A DNA stretch of 64,000 nt from Eubacteriales bacterium (GTDB lineage: Bacteria > Bacillota > Clostridia > Oscillospirales > QAKW01). Made by a program: the position numbers and the translations under genes. The DNA is taken from contig JAZQAE010000167.1 in assembly GCA_045544995.1 (NCBI GenBank), forward strand, positions 1,218 to 65,217. The letters run 5' to 3'. Under the pieces are notes generated by a model. It ran no database searches and was not told the DNA's origin. It was given only the letters and a program-made list of their open reading frames with translations. Below are positions 1,887 to 63,582 of the stretch, piece by piece. The number at the start of each line of letters is the position of its first letter. Within the stretch, counting starts at the first letter, position 1.

Positions 1887-2882
1887 ATGCCGAAAAAACC
1901 GTTGCAAAACCAAAAGCTTTTACGTCTTCGAGACCTCTTTTTGGAGGAGACCGACGAGACCCATGGCCTGACCATGGAAGAAATCTTAGAACGTCTTGCG
2001 GTGTTCGGCATTTCTGCCGAGCGCAAAAGCATTTACGAGAATATTGAGACGCTCAATCAATGCGGTATGGACATCCTCCGGGAAAGGCGGGGCGGAAAGA
2101 CCTATTACTTTGCCGCCTCCCGGGAGTTTGAGACGGCGGAACTGCGTCTTTTGGCGGATGCGGTGGCCTCTTCCCGTTTCATTACGGCGAAAAAGTCCGA
2201 AGAGCTTTTAAAGAAACTTACCCGACTGACCAGCCGTCACTCGGCGCAAGGGCTACGCAGACAGGTGCACGTCCCCAGCCGGATCAAAAACATGAACGAG
2301 ACCATCTTCTATTTAGTGGATGACCTCAACCGTGCCATCAGCGAAAATACCGCCATTACCTTTTGTTACTACGATTGGAGGGCAGAGGGGAAAACCCTGC
2401 GGCGCATTCCCCGGCACGGCGGACAAAGCTATGAGGTCTCCCCTTGGCAGTTGCTTTGGGAGGATGAGTTCTACTATCTCATTGCCTATGACCACCGTAC
2501 CCATTCCATCCGCCACTATCGGGTGGACCGAATGGGAGAGATCGCCCTCACCGACCAAAAGCGTCAAGGCGAAGAGGAATTCAAAAAGATCCGGATGGAG
2601 GATTATACCTCCCGGCTTTTCGGAATGTTCGGGGGCGAGACCCAGACTGTCACCCTTTCCTTCCCTGCCCGATTTTTAGACGTAATGATCGACCGATTCG
2701 GCAAACAGCTTTCTCTGCAACAAGACGGCGAAAACTGGCGTCTTCGAGTCCCGGTCATTCCCAGCCTCCCCTTTTACGGTTGGCTCCTTTCTCTGGGGCC
2801 GGAGGTAACCTTAACAGAGCCGGAACATCTGAGACAAGAATATTTAATGATTTTAAAAAAGGAGATTGAACGCCATGGTTAA
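1887..2882 (+). CDS. WYL-domain transcriptional regulator (wHTH-WYL-WCX architecture)
   Basis: ATG at 1887 is preceded by GGAGG. The N-terminal wHTH-like segment reads LLRLRDLFLEETDETHGLTMEEILERL. The central part ...YEVSPWQLLWEDEFYYLIAYDHRTHSIRHYRVDRM is typical of WYL domains. Confidence 0.8.
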   Translation: MPKKPLQNQKLLRLRDLFLEETDETHGLTMEEILERLAVFGISAERKSIYENIETLNQCGMDILRERRGGKTYYFAASREFETAELRLLADAVASSRFITAKKSEELLKKLTRLTSRHSAQGLRRQVHVPSRIKNMNETIFYLVDDLNRAISENTAITFCYYDWRAEGKTLRRIPRHGGQSYEVSPWQLLWEDEFYYLIAYDHRTHSIRHYRVDRMGEIALTDQKRQGEEEFKKIRMEDYTSRLFGMFGGETQTVTLSFPARFLDVMIDRFGKQLSLQQDGENWRLRVPVIPSLPFYGWLLSLGPEVTLTEPEHLRQEYLMILKKEIERHG

Positions 2883-3171
2883 ACACATGATTATCTGGAA
2901 GATGAAAGAGGAAATCGAGGATAAAACCGCCGTCAAAAAAGCGGTCAAAGAGGCGCTGGAGGGCTTGGTAGGCAAGATCGACGGCCTTTTGGAGATGAAG
3001 ATCCTCACCGAGGGCTTAGACTGCTCCGCCGGCGACCTGATGATGGACTCCACCTTGGAGAGTAAAGAGGCCCTGGATGCTTACCAAAAGCATCCCCTCC
3101 ACCAGGAAGCGGCCAACACCTTTGTTCGCCCCAATATGAGCCAACGGCTCTCCTTCGATTACGAAGTATAA
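2875..3171 (+). CDS. Dabb (stress-responsive alpha/beta-barrel) family protein
   Basis: MVKHMIIWKMKEE...DAYQKHPLHQEAANTFVRP matches the Dabb family pattern. The ATG at 2875 overlaps the WYL gene stop (ATGGTTAA), with AGGAG 10 nt upstream. Confidence 0.75.
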   Translation: MVKHMIIWKMKEEIEDKTAVKKAVKEALEGLVGKIDGLLEMKILTEGLDCSAGDLMMDSTLESKEALDAYQKHPLHQEAANTFVRPNMSQRLSFDYEV

Positions 3172-12929: not shown

Positions 12930-12997
12930 AAGGTGCCTCCTTTCTGTATCTTTCTTATATTAAACCATATTTTCAAGCCAATAGCAAGAACTTTTCC

Positions 12998-13026
12998 TTG
13001 CTTTCCGCTGTTTTCCATACTATAAT
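12998..13026 (+). promoter_or_regulatory. Promoter (TTGCTT-17-TATAAT) for the riboswitch-led operon
   Basis: Read directly from the sequence. Confidence 0.5.
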
Positions 13027-13029
13027 GGG

Positions 13030-13240
13030 GGAAGAAACAACTCCGACGAACAAGGAATGGGGTGTAATTCCCCGGCGATCCCGTCGTCGTGTTGGGCGAG
13101 GATGGCTCATTATCCACTGCGCCGAAAGCGTGGGAAGGAGAGCCTTCTGCTTGAGCCCTCAGCCGAAAGACTTGGCGTCGGAGGATCGGTGCGGCCGCCA
13201 CGATGTATGGCCGCTTTCATTTCGCTCTTTGAGGCAGAAA
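13030..13240 (+). promoter_or_regulatory. Cobalamin (B12) riboswitch with terminator-type expression platform
   Basis: Core-like GGAAUGGGGUGUAAUUCCCCGGCGAUCCCGUCGUCGUG, CCACUG...GGGAAGG, and a B12-box-like GUCGGAGGAUCGGUGC. These are followed by hairpin gcggcc...ggccgc plus a U-rich tail. The downstream genes are of types usually found behind B12 riboswitches. Confidence 0.65.
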
Positions 13241-59336: not shown

Positions 59337-60274
59337 ATGGGTCTCCTTTCTGCTATACGCAACTTTGCGGGCTTTGAGCGGTTATTGGCCGCCAACTCTT
59401 CCTGGGATGCCGTGATCGGCTTATGGGTGATCTGCCGGATAATGGGCTTGCGTCCGCAAACACAGATCGGCAGATTTTTATCACAGATACAGCCGGAAGC
59501 TAAATCTGCAAAGGTGGTCTTCACAATGCGATCCTCCAGCGAATGGAAGGTCATCACAGCGATTCTTCCGCCGGGTTTCAAGACGGACACCGCATCCCGG
59601 ATTGCTTGCTCCAGGATCCGCAGTTCGCCGTTAACTTCAATCCGGATCGCTTGGAAGGTCCGCTTGGCAGGATGCTTATTTCCGTAGCGATCCTTGGGTG
59701 GGAAGACCTTTTCAATGATCTTCACCAATTGTCCGGTGGTTTCGATGGGTGATTCTTCCCGACGCTTACAGATCGCACCTGCGATCCGGGGCGCCATTCG
59801 CTCTTCACCGTAACGGTATAAAATATCGGTCAATTGTTCTTTGGAATAGGTATTGACCACTTGATATGCATCCAGAGGGCTTTCCCGATCCATCCGCATG
59901 TCCAGCGGAGCATCGAAACGGTAAGAAAAGCCACGGCTTTCCTCATCCAATTGAAAACTGGAAACGCCCAGGTCGAAAAGAATTCCGTCAATGGCGGAGA
60001 TCCCTTCCGCATCCAACACACTCCGCAGGGCAGAGAAATTGGATTTGACCGCTTTGAACCGCGCTCCAAAAGGTTCTAACCGTTTAGTGGCTGCTGCCAA
60101 AGCGTCCCGATCCTGATCAATGCCGATCAGGAAGCCTTTATCTAACCGTGCGGCTATCAGACTGCTGTGACCGCCTCCGCCCAACGTGGCATCCACATAG
60201 ATCCCATTGGGGTCGATGGCAAGTCCTTCGATGCACTCCTCAGCCATCACGCTATAATGCGAAAATTCTTTCAT
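59333..60274 (-). CDS. rsmH: 16S rRNA (cytosine1402-N4)-methyltransferase
   Basis: HYSVMAEECIEGL, DATLGGGGHS, DLGVSSFQLD and FHSLEDRIVK. Confidence 0.97.
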   Translation of the reverse strand: MKEFSHYSVMAEECIEGLAIDPNGIYVDATLGGGGHSSLIAARLDKGFLIGIDQDRDALAAATKRLEPFGARFKAVKSNFSALRSVLDAEGISAIDGILFDLGVSSFQLDEESRGFSYRFDAPLDMRMDRESPLDAYQVVNTYSKEQLTDILYRYGEERMAPRIAGAICKRREESPIETTGQLVKIIEKVFPPKDRYGNKHPAKRTFQAIRIEVNGELRILEQAIRDAVSVLKPGGRIAVMTFHSLEDRIVKTTFADLASGCICDKNLPICVCGRKPIIRQITHKPITASQEELAANNRSKPAKLRIAERRPI

Positions 60275-60699
60275 CAGAAGCCCAGCTCATCCATGGCAGC
60301 GACAATGCTTTCGCTATCCATCTTGGCTTCCATCTCAGCATAACGCTCGGGGGACCAGATCTCTACCCGATTGCCGTTACCGATGATGACTGCCTTTCCT
60401 TCGATGGCCGCCAGTTCTCTGAGTTTGATGGGCAATTGGATCCGTCCCTGCTTATCGGGGGTCACGTCCTTTTTATGGGCATTGAAGAAAAGAGAAACGC
60501 CCCGGCCTTTGGACATCGGCATGGCTGCCAGCTTATTCTGCAGTTCCAACCATGCTTCCCGGGTCAGTACATACACGCAATCATCTAAGCCACGGGTCAG
60601 TACCAGATCTCCGCCCATCAGTTCTTTGAACTCTTTCGGCAGGATCGCCCGGCCTTTTTCGTCCACGAAGTTTTCGTAGTAGCCTGTCAGATAAACCAT
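60274..60699 (-). CDS. mraZ: Transcriptional regulator MraZ
   Basis: Two SpoVT-AbrB halves, DEKGRAILPKEF and DKQGRIQLPIKL. The start was set at 60699, with an AAAGGAGG RBS. Confidence 0.93.
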   Translation of the reverse strand: MVYLTGYYENFVDEKGRAILPKEFKELMGGDLVLTRGLDDCVYVLTREAWLELQNKLAAMPMSKGRGVSLFFNAHKKDVTPDKQGRIQLPIKLRELAAIEGKAVIIGNGNRVEIWSPERYAEMEAKMDSESIVAAMDELGF

Positions 60700-60722
60700 G
60701 TATGCACCTCCTTTCGCATTTT

Positions 60723-60799
60723 CACCCACTCAATGTACACTAAGCACCCATTTAGACTCCACTTGATTTAAATTATACCAAAAAAACAGGAAAATGCAA
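60723..60799 (-). promoter_or_regulatory. dcw-cluster promoter (TTGCAT-16-TGgTATAAT) followed by four GTG(G/T)-type direct repeats (candidate MraZ operator)
   Basis: Minus strand: -35 at 60794-99 and -10 at 60772-77. The repeats are AGTGGAG (60757-63), ATGGGTG (60745-51), AGTGTAC (60735-41) and GTGGGTG (60723-29), spaced 10-12 bp apart. Confidence 0.5.
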
Positions 60800-60834
60800 T
60801 AGTTTTTTATTAAAAAAATAAAAAAATACAAAAT

Positions 60835-61124
60835 AAAAAAACACCCCGTTGTGGCACCTCTCCTACGGATGGTGCCACAGTTATATTCGCCTCTCGGCGA
60901 GTGATATTGCTTCGCAGTTATATGATGCTTCGCATCGTTATATTGTCCTTCGGACAGTTTTATAGGCGAATATAATATAACGAAAGCCGTATGGCTTTCA
61001 TATCACTTGGCCGTAGGTCAAATATAACTGCAAACGGTAGTTTGCAATACAACTCACACTTGAGAATAATAGAAAAACGGAGACGGCTTCTTTACGAAGC
61101 GTCTCCGTTTTCGAGGTGTTTTTT
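60835..61124. repeat. Mirror-symmetric heptamer/mini-hairpin array of unknown function (candidate structured ncRNA or protein-binding array)
   Basis: Five GT(T/G/T)ATAT heptamers are followed by four reverse-complement copies. Within each arm every gap is a unique GC-rich hairpin. A 13-nt inverted repeat brackets the unit. No ORF is present. See findings. Confidence 0.7.
61073..61111. terminator. Bidirectional intrinsic terminator
   Basis: Stem cggagacggcttc/gaagcgtctccg (one bulge), flanked by A5 and T4. It terminates the minus-strand EIIC-like gene and could also end a plus-strand transcript of the array. Confidence 0.8.
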
Positions 61125-61133
61125 CCTATTAAA

Positions 61134-62174
61134 TTATAACTTCAAGTCGCCCTCTTTGATCCAGCCCAGCTTACGGAGCAGCAGTCCGCCCAGCCAAGTA
61201 AGGATCGCCGGAAGCACGAAGCAGATCAGCGCAAGACCGATCCAATCAAAGGCGGTGATGGGGGTTCCGCTCTCCACCCAGCCGGTATATACACCGATCT
61301 GACCCACCAGTCCGCAGGTACCCATACCGGAGGAAACGGCGGGGCCATTCATTTCCAGCTTAAAGAGGCAGGTAGCCAGAGGGCCGGTGATGGCAGAGGT
61401 GACGATGGGAGGGATCCAGACCTTGGGGTTCCGAACGATATTGCCCATCTGGAGCATGGAGGTACCGAGGCCCTGGGAAACCAGACCGCCCCAGCGATTT
61501 TCACGGAAGCTCATGACGGCAAAGCCCACCATCTGAGCGCAACAGCCAGCAACTGCCGCACCGCCGGCCAGACCGGTCAGACCCAGCGCCGCACAGATGG
61601 CGGCGGAGGAAATGGGCAACGTCAAGGCGATGCCCACCAAGACGGAAACTACGATGCCCATCAGCAAGGGTTGCAGTTCTGTCGCCTGCATGATCAGCGT
61701 ACCGAAGGCGCTGGCCGCCTTGCCGATATACGGCGCAATGCCGGCGGAAAGTGCCACGCCCACCAGGATGGTGACCGAGGGGGTGACCAGAATATCCACC
61801 TTCGTTTCCTTGGAGACCAGTTTGCCGCACTCGGCGGCAACGATAGCAATCACCAGAACGGCCAAGGGGCCTCCGGCACCGCCCAAGCCATTGGCGGCAC
61901 TACCTACTGCTGCCAGGGAAAAGAGCACCAAATTCGGCGCTTTCAGCGCATAGCCGATGGCAATAGCCATCGCCGGGCCGGACATGGCAGAGGCATATTT
62001 GCCGATCTCCACCAAGAAGCCCCAGCCGGTCAGATCACCGATGGTATCAATGATGGTGCCGATCAAAAGGGAGCAGAAGAGCCCCTGCGCCATGGCACCC
62101 AAAGCGTCAATAAAATAACGCTTCCAGGAAAACTCAATGTCTTTTTTCTTTAAGAATTCTGCAAATTTACTCAT
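61134..62174 (-). CDS. PTS EIIC-like membrane protein (stand-alone PTS_EIIC_2-type)
   Basis: About ten TM helices, Gly/Ala-rich. The N-terminus KRYFIDALGAMAQGLFCSLLIGTII resembles that family. No EIIA/EIIB gene is adjacent. Confidence 0.55.
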   Translation of the reverse strand: MSKFAEFLKKKDIEFSWKRYFIDALGAMAQGLFCSLLIGTIIDTIGDLTGWGFLVEIGKYASAMSGPAMAIAIGYALKAPNLVLFSLAAVGSAANGLGGAGGPLAVLVIAIVAAECGKLVSKETKVDILVTPSVTILVGVALSAGIAPYIGKAASAFGTLIMQATELQPLLMGIVVSVLVGIALTLPISSAAICAALGLTGLAGGAAVAGCCAQMVGFAVMSFRENRWGGLVSQGLGTSMLQMGNIVRNPKVWIPPIVTSAITGPLATCLFKLEMNGPAVSSGMGTCGLVGQIGVYTGWVESGTPITAFDWIGLALICFVLPAILTWLGGLLLRKLGWIKEGDLKL

Positions 62175-62872
62175 CCTAATAAACCTTCTTTCTGAAGCAG
62201 ATCACGCAGATAGTCAATAAACATTTCATAGCCCATTTTATTGAAATGAACGCGGTCGGTATCGAAGATATCTTCCCGCACCATTTCGGGATCGCCGATG
62301 TCTTCAGGCTTTTCAAAATAGAAGGGTGCCTGATACAGATCCACGATCTGAACCCCTTCCTTCCGGGCGCAATAATCTTCCAAATATTCATTGTACTCTT
62401 GACGGAAGCGGGTAACGTGATTTACCGTTCCTTTATTCTTGATACCCGGCATCTTTTTAAAAACATAGACCGGTGCATCGGGGAATTCAGCCCGGAACCA
62501 GTCGATCAGGGTTGCGGTAACGTTCATGGACTCGGCAGGGCTATAGCCGAACCCGATATCGTTGCTACCGGTGGAAAGGATCAACGCACGGGGCGCATAA
62601 GGGCGCACCAGACGGTCGTAGTAGTACAAAAGGTCATCGGCACTGCTGGTACCAAAACCATGATTAATGACCGCCTTAGAGCCGTCCTTTGCCAAAAGCG
62701 TCTCCTCAAAAAGAGGATGACCCTTTTCGGGATGACGGTCGCAGTATGTGAAAGAACTGCGGGTAAAGAAGGAATCTCCGTAAAAAAGGATCTTGCCGGT
62801 CTCTACGGGGCGTCCCAAGTACTTTGCAATTTCATCGTCAAATCTTCTGACTTCCAATCTTGATCCGAACAT
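62171..62872 (-). CDS. SGNH/GDSL-family hydrolase (esterase)
   Basis: YGDSFF (block I Ser), GFGTSS, GSND, and DRVHFN (block V Asp/His). Confidence 0.75.
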   Translation of the reverse strand: MFGSRLEVRRFDDEIAKYLGRPVETGKILFYGDSFFTRSSFTYCDRHPEKGHPLFEETLLAKDGSKAVINHGFGTSSADDLLYYYDRLVRPYAPRALILSTGSNDIGFGYSPAESMNVTATLIDWFRAEFPDAPVYVFKKMPGIKNKGTVNHVTRFRQEYNEYLEDYCARKEGVQIVDLYQAPFYFEKPEDIGDPEMVREDIFDTDRVHFNKMGYEMFIDYLRDLLQKEGLLG

Positions 62873-63582
62873 TACAGCAGTCCCTCCTGATCTAGAAAAT
62901 CACGGAACCAGGCAATGAATTTTTTGTATCCTGCTGGATTGAAGTGTACCTGGTCACCCACGTAGTGAATGGTTTTAACCTTGCTATAGTCGCCAATGTC
63001 CTCCGGATTTATGTCGTAGGCCTTGGTATCGCCCGCCTTGGAATAAAGGAACGGGATCTTTTCCATGGCGATATAGGTGCAATCGTTCTTTTTGCAATAG
63101 TCCTCTAAAAGTTCGTTATACTGGGCACGGGCATTGAGATAGATCTTCTGGGTGTTGTTCTTGCAGTTGGGCAGATAATTCATGCAATAGACGGGAGCAC
63201 TGGGGAAATCCGCCTTAAACCAATTAATGATCCGTGCTTCAATATCCATGACATCCTTGGGGAAATAGCCAAAGGCAAAATCGTTTGCCGCAGTAGCCAG
63301 CACCAAAGCCTTGGGCTTATAAGGACGGACCATTCTGGAATAATAATACAGCAGGTCATCCGCACTACTGGTGCCGAAACCATGGTTGACGATAGCCTGA
63401 GAGCCGTCATTCATCAGCAGCTCCTGCTCGATATCCGGATTTTCCTTCACAGTTCTGATGGGAGAGCAACGGGTAAAGAGAGAATGACCGTACAGAAGGA
63501 TCTTTCCCTCTACCACCGGCATCGCTTCGTAGTTCAAAATCGATTCCTCAAACTTCTTGACTTCCAGTTTTGAACCAAACAT
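62872..63582 (-). CDS. SGNH/GDSL-family hydrolase, paralog of the downstream gene
   Basis: YGHSLF (GHS instead of GDS), GFGTSSADDLLYYY shared with the paralog, AAND, and DQVHFN. Its stop overlaps the next start (TAATG). Confidence 0.7.
   Translation of the reverse strand: MFGSKLEVKKFEESILNYEAMPVVEGKILLYGHSLFTRCSPIRTVKENPDIEQELLMNDGSQAIVNHGFGTSSADDLLYYYSRMVRPYKPKALVLATAANDFAFGYFPKDVMDIEARIINWFKADFPSAPVYCMNYLPNCKNNTQKIYLNARAQYNELLEDYCKKNDCTYIAMEKIPFLYSKAGDTKAYDINPEDIGDYSKVKTIHYVGDQVHFNPAGYKKFIAWFRDFLDQEGLL

Follow-up and report, generated by a model that had tools for sequence, protein, structure and literature searches.

The window analysed in this study is a stretch of 64,000 nucleotides from contig JAZQAE010000167.1 of an Eubacteriales bacterium (assembly GCA_045544995.1). 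Near its right end, positions 60849-61111 hold a mirror-symmetric array of short heptamers and small hairpins. This segment of about 263 bp is most probably a copy, without an open reading frame (ORF), of a dispersed and hairpin-rich repeat family, that is, a non-autonomous mobile element lodged in a terminator; we give this reading a probability of about 0.7. Comparison with orthologous loci showed that the window copy sits as an insertion within the intrinsic terminator following a phosphotransferase system (PTS) EIIC gene.

The genes neighbouring the array all lie on the minus strand, namely that of the PTS EIIC permease (61134-62174), then mraZ (60274-60702), rsmH, ftsL and a penicillin-binding protein gene. 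Orthologous loci were fetched by way of MraZ from 14 Clostridia metagenome-assembled genomes (MAGs), which share the order EIIC-terminator-mraZ and encode MraZ proteins 73-99% identical to that of the window. The array is absent from all 14 orthologous EIIC-mraZ spacers, three of which come from relatives with a 98-99% identical MraZ. In these three closest relatives and in locus L124 (loci are numbered with the prefix L), a plain terminator, AAAACACCCC(A/G)-TTTT-(T/C)GGGGTGTTTTT, occupies the place of the array. The extra sequence in the window amounts to about 263 bases between ...CACCTCG and CGGGGTGTTTTTTT, and its comparison with the plain terminator of the relatives identifies the 13-nt inverted repeat that brackets the array as the stem of the host terminator. 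Positions 60836-60848 align with the 3' half and T-run of this terminator (GGGGTGTTTTTTT on the gene strand) at the empty sites L121-L124. The bracketing repeat had been noted in a preliminary description of the array, made from the sequence of the window; it is present and pairs at 12 of 13 positions, but it belongs to the host and lies outside the element.

The same comparison bears on the proposal that the array is a cis-regulator of mraZ and of the division and cell wall (dcw) cluster, or else a chromosome partition or iteron site. The array is located about 60-110 bp upstream of the mraZ promoter and has two opposed repeat clusters, both of which speak for such a function. However, it is missing from 14 of 14 orthologous mraZ upstream regions in which the promoter and the MraZ-box repeats are intact, other copies lie behind unrelated genes and tRNAs, and there is no similarity to plasmid records. 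A partition site, as the preliminary description had suggested, or any role for mraZ or dcw is thus extremely improbable. The mraZ promoter and the repeated MraZ-box region downstream of it are kept both in the orthologous loci and in the window, where positions 60716-60800 (minus strand) hold the promoter TTGCAT-17-TATAAT followed by GTGG-type repeats gtggagtctaaatgggtgcttagtgtacattgagtgggtg that are near-invariant in the 14 loci. These repeats are presumably the MraZ operator, untouched by the insertion. In L131 (about 2500-3000), some 350 nt of the orthologous region upstream of mraZ are taken up by another repeat, in which a GC-rich hairpin with a T-run (cggcgg...ttttt) occurs many times and which has no relation to the heptamer arrays. 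When MraZ, EIIC and RsmH were looked up as exact products, no record was returned.

Reading of positions 60500-61500 placed nine heptamers, five on the plus strand followed by four reverse complements, each where it had been described before. The window copy and its host site are laid out as follows.

60836-60848: left half of the split host terminator, AAAAAACACCCCG; outside the element, pairs with 61112-61124.
60850-60879: hp0, the left terminal hairpin, tgtggcacc-12 nt-ggtgccaca, from the inverted-repeat search; its junction 21-mer GGTGCCACAGTTATATTCGCC recurs elsewhere.
60880-60963, plus strand: arm 1, five GT(T/G)(A/T)TAT heptamers and four short GC-rich hairpins; Rfam Gut-1 motif.
60880, 60901, 60917, 60937 and 60957: starts of the plus-strand heptamers GTTATAT, GTGATAT, GTTATAT, GTTATAT and GTTTTAT.
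60964-60975: centre, AGGCGAATATAA, which pairs over long range with 60881-60892 and provides the 3' strand of this pairing, P1; a perfect 12-nt complement.
60975-61053, minus strand: arm 2, four inverted heptamers and three longer hairpins; weak minus-strand Gut-1 match.
60975, 61000, 61022 and 61047: starts of the inverted heptamers ATATAAC, ATATCAC, ATATAAC and ATACAAC.
61054-61073: short remnant, tcacacTTGAGAataatag, from arm 2 to the terminal hairpin, by comparison with L142, L170 and L046.
61074-61111: hpT, the right terminal hairpin and a bidirectional intrinsic terminator, AAAACGGAGACG...CGTCTCCGTTTT, from the inverted-repeat search.
61112-61124: right half of the split host terminator, CGAGGTGTTTTTT; outside the element, pairs at 12 of 13 positions with 60836-60848.

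Small palindromes occupy the gaps between the heptamers exactly, the eighth of them (tcacacttga) being weak, in agreement with the preliminary description. Seven exact GTKATAT sites fall inside 149 bp, whereas 10.2 would be expected over the full 64 kb with both strands counted. The inverted-repeat search recovered the pairs 60881-92/60964-75, 60850-58/60871-79, 61074-85/61100-111 and 60836-48/61112-24, and with them the 12-nt complement, the preceding hairpin and the following terminator that had been pointed out earlier. The P1 partner at 60881-60892 comprises the first heptamer and the 5' half of hairpin 1. The two strands of the array fold far more stably than shuffled sequences, with -123.6 kcal/mol (z -11.8) and -125.5 kcal/mol (z -12.9), and the list of window ORFs contains no ORF of substance in the region, as had been claimed. 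The hairpin hpT is absent at the empty sites and is now the first terminator 3' of the EIIC gene; its sequence ggagacNNcttctttacgaagNgtctcc is kept at the right end of copies in other genomes.

An Rfam scan of the whole window matched Gut-1 RNA (RF01706) to positions 60878-60948 on the plus strand with 54.5 bits against a gathering score of 50 (E 5e-8, full model 1-77). Because the model scores above its threshold, the array is not unclassified, and the earlier statement that it fits no known small RNA (sRNA) class had to be given up; judged by its sequence, it is a member of a known but uncharacterised Rfam family. A second Gut-1 match, on the minus strand at 60952-61030, is weak (21.5 bits, E 0.06), and the model also matches arm 1 in seven other copies with 54-80 bits. 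In the Gut-1 consensus GUGAAAU stands between three hairpins; the linker of the window copy is GUUAUAU or GUGAUAU, a variant also found among the seed members, where it goes with flanks like those of the window copy. Gut-1 originates from 43 human-gut metagenome sequences and was judged to be an RNA by covariation and not cis-regulatory, without organism or function (Weinberg et al. 2010; PMC2864571). The flanks in the Stockholm file of that study show the same mirror layout, the same centre GGCGAAUAUAAUAUCAC and an outer closing helix, and the published model ends after the first arm. A literature search on Gut-1 found nothing later than the 2010 paper. An existing Rfam model that matches the array and close relatives whose mraZ upstream region is free of it are the two observations that the preliminary description had named as speaking against its own proposals, and both were made.

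Two other Rfam candidates, cow-rumen-3 (20.8 bits, 86.7 needed) and group-II-D1D4-7 (16.8 bits, E 0.21), were rejected, since both are far below threshold and overlap the terminator or the arms. The weak cow-rumen-3 match (61016-61141, minus strand) spans the last arm-2 hairpin and hpT. The cow-rumen-3 model holds AAACUACCGUUU, a sequence identical to the arm-2 hairpin, and gave no match to the fuller copies in 18 other loci.

The array is not confined to the window. Arrays were detected with a gapped heptamer pattern in about 85 out of the 120 genome stretches sampled, the hosts being nearly all gut or rumen Clostridia (Oscillospiraceae, Acutalibacteraceae, Ruminococcus and Christensenellaceae), with a few arrays in Akkermansia and Bacteroidales. 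The exact 21-mer of the hp0/arm-1 junction was found in at least 118 stretches from MAGs of gut and rumen Clostridia, at unrelated loci, and among the matches listed it is present on three to four different contigs in six MAGs. At least 20 of its copies are located at true contig ends, as expected because repeats break assemblies. L064 has two copies with 96% identity over 247 bp; one of them begins a single base past a tRNA-Asn, and the start of the other coincides with a protein gene's stop codon. The window copy exhibits about 86% identity over 205 nt with the nearest sampled copies. In L157, a second array of another subfamily (GTGATAT/GTGAAAT) begins right after hpT of the first element, so that the two elements are adjacent or nested. 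Carriage by phages or plasmids was rejected, as collections of viruses and plasmids contain practically none of the family: the junction 21-mer was not found in viral contigs, three of 120 viral pattern matches were real arrays, and the array showed no similarity to plasmid records and one weak match to phage records.

The surroundings of the copies are consistent with the insertion at the EIIC-mraZ locus. Within the 21-mer subfamily, about 30 of the 91 copies with sequence available on both sides stand between the halves of a perfect inverted repeat, 10 bp or longer, which reads A-run plus stem on one side and stem plus T-run on the other. These flanking brackets differ at every copy and lie outward of TGTGGCACC by 0-5 nt and of the conserved right end by 2-5 nt. 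In view of the differing brackets and the empty site at EIIC-mraZ, it is simplest to suppose that bidirectional intrinsic terminators received the insertions in their loops. Elements of the GTGAAAT subfamily instead come after an intact terminator. All 20 tRNA genes found within 150 nt of an array are directed at it, and in every case the arm closest to them lies on the tRNA strand.

On the strand that has arm 1 in the Rfam sense, the full element consists of hp0, arm 1, the centre, the inverted arm 2, a variable stretch and hpT. Throughout the family, arm 1 comprises four to five heptamers with short hairpins, the first usually being tcgcc-N-ggcga, and arm 2 three to four inverted heptamers with longer hairpins, the innermost usually being tgaaacc-N-ggtttca. 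The order is plus-then-minus in about 30 other elements and the reverse in two. Each element uses one heptamer type, which differs by lineage (GTGAAAT, GTGATAT, GTTATAT, GTTAAAT, GCTAAAT or GTTTTAT). Copies without arm 2 or internal parts also exist (L146, L151, L160 and L185), and the window copy lacks about 110 nt that fuller copies have between arm 2 and hpT.

The pairing P1 between the centre and the first heptamer with the 5' half of hairpin 1 is complementary at no fewer than 9 of 11 positions in 68 of 85 mirror elements, whereas the opposite polarity and a control region reach at most 8 of 11. P1 covaries, with at least six sequence pairs such as TATATTCGCC/GGCGAATATA, GAAATAAATCC/GGATTTATTTC and TAAATCCACCC/GGGTGGATTTA. 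In the window copy it is the 12-nt complement, an alternative that competes with hairpin 1, and the weight that the preliminary description had placed on this complement was justified. The pairing it proposed between left and right heptamers is not maintained in the family, as L046 has four GTTATAT facing four ATATCAC.

The observation that the stems vary in sequence and retain their complementarity holds family-wide. Of 254 inter-heptamer spacers, 219 are distinct and 231 are at least 80% palindromic compared with eight after shuffling, demonstrating that hairpin potential is selected. These arm statistics are direct counts; a MAFFT alignment put several rows out of register by one unit. Of the 1410 stem positions, 1339 are Watson-Crick pairs, 16 are G·U, 18 are A·C and 37 hold other mismatches, with no G·U excess on either strand, in contrast to typical structured RNAs. 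The loops are polar, being C-TTC-G, C-TGC-G, C-TAC-G or C-TTGC-G on the heptamer-sense strand and GNA triloops or GNNA/GNRA tetraloops closed by C-G on the opposite strand; the GNA-type loops we take to be of the d(GCGAAGC) type. Loop identity cannot pick the strand, because the inverted arms give each strand one TNC arm and one GNA/GNNA arm. Together, the lack of a wobble excess and the polar loops suggest that the structure is needed on both strands or in DNA, with RNA remaining compatible.

These properties have to be weighed against the Rfam reading of Gut-1 as a stand-alone sRNA gene, in which the array would be transcribed and act in trans, for example as a protein sponge showing GUKAWAU linkers, and the copies would be a gene family. 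Besides the Rfam match and the curators' 'RNA: yes, covariation', the covarying hairpins and a sense-strand terminator after the single-arm members L039, L097 and L117 agree with it. On the other hand, the 16 G·U against 18 A·C show no wobble excess, the two strands fold equally well, hp0 adjoins arm 1 and leaves no room for a promoter, and of the two arms in the unit the Rfam model describes one. Moreover, a filled versus an empty site, copies at contig ends and ORF-deleted derivatives (see below) are properties of a mobile repeat. An sRNA gene as the whole explanation is accordingly improbable, and the earlier hypotheses of a structured noncoding RNA and of an RNA sponge gained no support. 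The sRNA reading and mobility are not mutually exclusive.

Clustering of neighbouring ORFs revealed a protein of 115-126 amino acids encoded directly past arm 2 and pointing away from it at eight loci, including Akkermansia and Roseburia. This array-linked protein is a PF05635 member, "23S rRNA-intervening sequence protein" (E 3e-28), with a weak match to bAvd. The closest solved relative is PDB ID 2RLD, an uncharacterised protein with five chains of one sequence; these five chains and the four to five heptamer modules per arm are so far a numerical coincidence only. For the converse test, 80 PF05635 homologues with their flanks were searched for any 7-mer occurring at least three times and then in at least three reverse-complement copies, one mismatch being allowed. 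A mirror array was found upstream of 47 of 74 PF05635 genes, as opposed to 0 of 76 downstream and 0 of 74 shuffled regions. Several of the genes missed by the test have arrays by eye. An exact-7-mer mirror criterion was too strict, and a detector for hairpin chains spaced by 7 nt failed to tell real regions from controls. Upstream of PF05635 in L316 and L330, arrays with a quite different heptamer (GCTAAAT/ATTTAGC) are built in the same way, and here too the centre is complementary to the beginning of arm 1. In an Akkermansia MAG (L005, 5650-6700), the PF05635 gene has heptamer-hairpin arrays (ATATAAC/GTTATAT) as well as a repeated block some 300 bp long on both sides, as if it were inside tandem arrays. 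In L288 (945-985 and 1565-1600), the 3' half of hp0 and the first heptamer (GAAGCGTGTTTTTAGTTTTATT) are repeated directly after the PF05635 gene, and this direct repeat brackets array and gene.

In the gene-carrying units, a TTGAAA-17-TATAAT promoter adjoins the last arm-2 heptamer in fixed orientation. The heptamers could thus form a double-stranded DNA operator, binding a regulator (perhaps PF05635 itself) that controls this promoter, and the window copy would be a relic without the gene. Heptamers that are uniform per element and lineage-specific, as for a co-evolving protein site, and a spacing of about two helical turns fit this idea. Yet a duplex site leaves the 219 differing palindromic spacers unexplained, as well as the polar loops (TNC in heptamer sense, GNA/GNNA on the other strand) and the covarying P1, and hundreds of gene-less copies persist. 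We regard an operator as an unlikely account of the family.

The relation between gene-carrying and ORF-less copies was followed through the sequence just past the PF05635 stop codon, which recurs shortly after arm 2 in ORF-less elements. For this comparison the post-stop segments of all units were used as queries; when the L268 unit as a whole was compared with ORF-less copies by BLAST, there was no two-sided match. In L138, the promoter and ATG are joined directly to PF05635 post-stop sequence. Based on the recurring post-stop sequence and this fusion, the ORF-less copies, including the window copy, appear to have arisen by internal deletion from a unit of array plus PF05635. Searched with a profile of the PF05635 proteins linked to arrays, the window ORFs contained no member. 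In L268, the whole gene-carrying unit is flanked by a 14-bp split terminator.

Several observations count against a mobile repeat that inserts into terminators. One copy was found in the 64-kb window. No target-site duplication was seen, the nucleotides between host stem and element varying in number (0-5 and 2-5 nt) without a direct repeat. Terminal inverted repeats are only imperfect and were identified by eye (the hp0 loop with hpT or an alternative right end). Neighbour-gene clustering at about 230 loci yielded no recognisable transposase, only common families and PF05635. The GTGAAAT subfamily follows intact terminators or tRNAs, not split terminators. Only one empty site, that of the present locus, was obtained, and a metagenome scan for a second one with the reconstituted L147 terminator gave unrelated hairpins. 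At the present locus the alignment fits either an insertion into the old loop or a replacement of the old 5' stem half. The left half in the window is either the old 5' stem, altered by one C-to-T change, or an upstream repeat that resembles it, and in the latter case the element replaced the old 5' half instead of splitting the loop. Finally, ORF-less and gene-linked arrays within one MAG are only 78-81% identical, indicating that their relationship is old, not recent.

A small non-autonomous mobile element had been among the hypotheses of the preliminary description, and it is the one that filled versus empty sites, dispersed copies and deletion derivatives favour, although the target-site duplication is missing. 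[quoted passage not shown] It has neither a target-site duplication nor terminal inverted repeats shared with a transposase-encoding element. The window copy is best understood as a MITE-like terminator insertion; it is not filed as a MITE because there is no target duplication and no transposase-bearing parent.

As to how the repeat moves, no transposase, target duplication or reverse transcriptase was seen near the copies. We propose that loops of terminator-like hairpins are the sites into which the element inserts as it spreads, and that its heptamer-hairpin modules are recognised by a trans-acting factor, probably in a single-stranded folded form. The PF05635 protein would be the obvious candidate for this factor. 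A mechanism in which the factor recognises the folded modules and insertion takes place into exposed hairpin loops serves as a tentative working model. It is conceivable, at odds clearly below even, that Gut-1 arrays together with the PF05635 gene constitute a previously unrecognised mobile element homing into stable hairpin loops, namely those of terminators, tRNA trailers and, by extension, rRNA helices. Within such an element, and just as provisionally, the modules may be the recognition structure and PF05635 (possibly a pentamer, with four to five modules per arm) the element-encoded factor. At the window locus, an EIIC transcript on the minus strand would meet hpT and its T-run first, and read-through would then run across the arrays, followed by hp0 and the old T-run, on its way to the intact mraZ promoter. 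As a passenger, the window copy would do no more than end or insulate transcription, without regulating mraZ or dcw.

The results remove the tempting story of a new regulator of the cell-division cluster, and every feature in the preliminary description is explained. An Rfam family orphaned for 16 years gains hosts, a full anatomy, a genomic behaviour in the form of terminator insertion, and PF05635 as its partner gene. What is on record for Gut-1 does not include the second arm, P1, the sites in terminator loops, the PF05635 partner or the derivatives with a deleted ORF. Both the nature of Gut-1 and the role of the "23S rRNA intervening sequence protein" family become testable questions. For annotators, Gut-1 matches are best handled as repeat copies, which also break MAG assemblies. 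If true, the homing element would give a function to the very large PF05635 family and an origin to ORF-bearing rRNA intervening sequences.

Two further features of the window lie apart from the array. Positions 12992-13193 (plus strand) match the cobalamin riboswitch RF00174 over its full length with 75.6 bits. On the minus strand, the adjacent ORFs 62171-62872 and 62872-63582 encode 233 and 236 amino acids with near-identical N-termini (MFGSRLEVRRFDDEI and MFGSKLEVKKFEESI), and from this resemblance they look like a tandem duplication.

Among known systems, the array is closest to Gut-1 (RF01706; PMC2864571), with which it shares a design of three hairpins split by a conserved heptamer, AU...GU closing each stem and the gut habitat. 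Unlike the Gut-1 model, which describes one arm and is filed as 'Gene; sRNA', the window array belongs to a unit, about 190-400 bp long, that has an inverted second arm, P1 and terminal hairpins and behaves as an insertion. Pneumococcal BOX, RUP, SPRITE, ERIC and Correia elements (reviewed in PMC10969869) are likewise small, non-coding, dispersed, located in intergenic regions or 3' untranslated regions and strongly structured, with size variants that arise by internal deletion. BOX, being modular with a repeated sub-unit, and SPRITE, being terminator-like, both resemble the window family (PMC10969869). In contrast to such MITE-like repeats, neither a target-site duplication nor transposase-derived terminal repeats were seen in the present family, whose probable target is a loop within a terminator hairpin; the review reports no MITE targeting terminator loops (PMC10969869). 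Its ORF-bearing relative also differs from the parents of MITEs in that it has a gene for a four-helix bundle of 118 amino acids and no transposase.

The preliminary description had kept the array apart from repetitive extragenic palindromes (REP) with their mosaic elements (BIME) and from integron attC sites, and this separation stands. In REP/BIME, the palindrome is conserved and the linkers vary, and IS1397 inserts into REP loops. Hairpin modules with a short conserved single-stranded flank, opposed clusters and a location after genes are common to REP/BIME and the window family, and insertion into hairpin loops is common to the latter and IS1397. However, the palindromes of the window family vary within an element (219 of 254 distinct), the linker GTKAWAT is conserved and the GTAG motif is lacking, and neighbour-gene clustering found no recurrent RAYT, HUH-type or IS3-type gene in the flanks of the copies. 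Integron attC sites have inverted core sites (RYYYAAC ... GTTRRRY), cassettes and an integrase, whereas the heptamers flanking the hairpins here are direct repeats and there are no cassettes.

Group IIC introns insert after intrinsic terminators, and the Avd/reverse transcriptase systems of diversity-generating retroelements home in a hairpin-dependent manner. Both resemble the window family in using a terminator or hairpin as target cue, and PF05635 weakly matches bAvd. Unlike them, the family has no ribozyme domains (the sole Rfam group II match has 16.8 bits, E 0.21), and no reverse transcriptase or template and variable repeats were seen; insertion is inside the hairpin and not after it, the position used by group IIC introns.

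ORF-bearing 23S rRNA intervening sequences, from which the PF05635 family has its name, are insertions in hairpin loops. They differ from the present family in their host site, which is an rRNA helix and not a terminator or tRNA trailer, and the window copy is without an ORF; we know of no heptamer arrays in rRNA intervening sequences. Nevertheless, both are inserted in the hairpin loop of a transcribed unit, and relatives of the array carry PF05635. Lodging in a host hairpin loop is indicated by the split terminator flanks in the window, at about 30 copies and at the gene-carrying unit L268. By this analogy, the array family may have a parallel in the ORF-bearing 23S rRNA intervening sequences.

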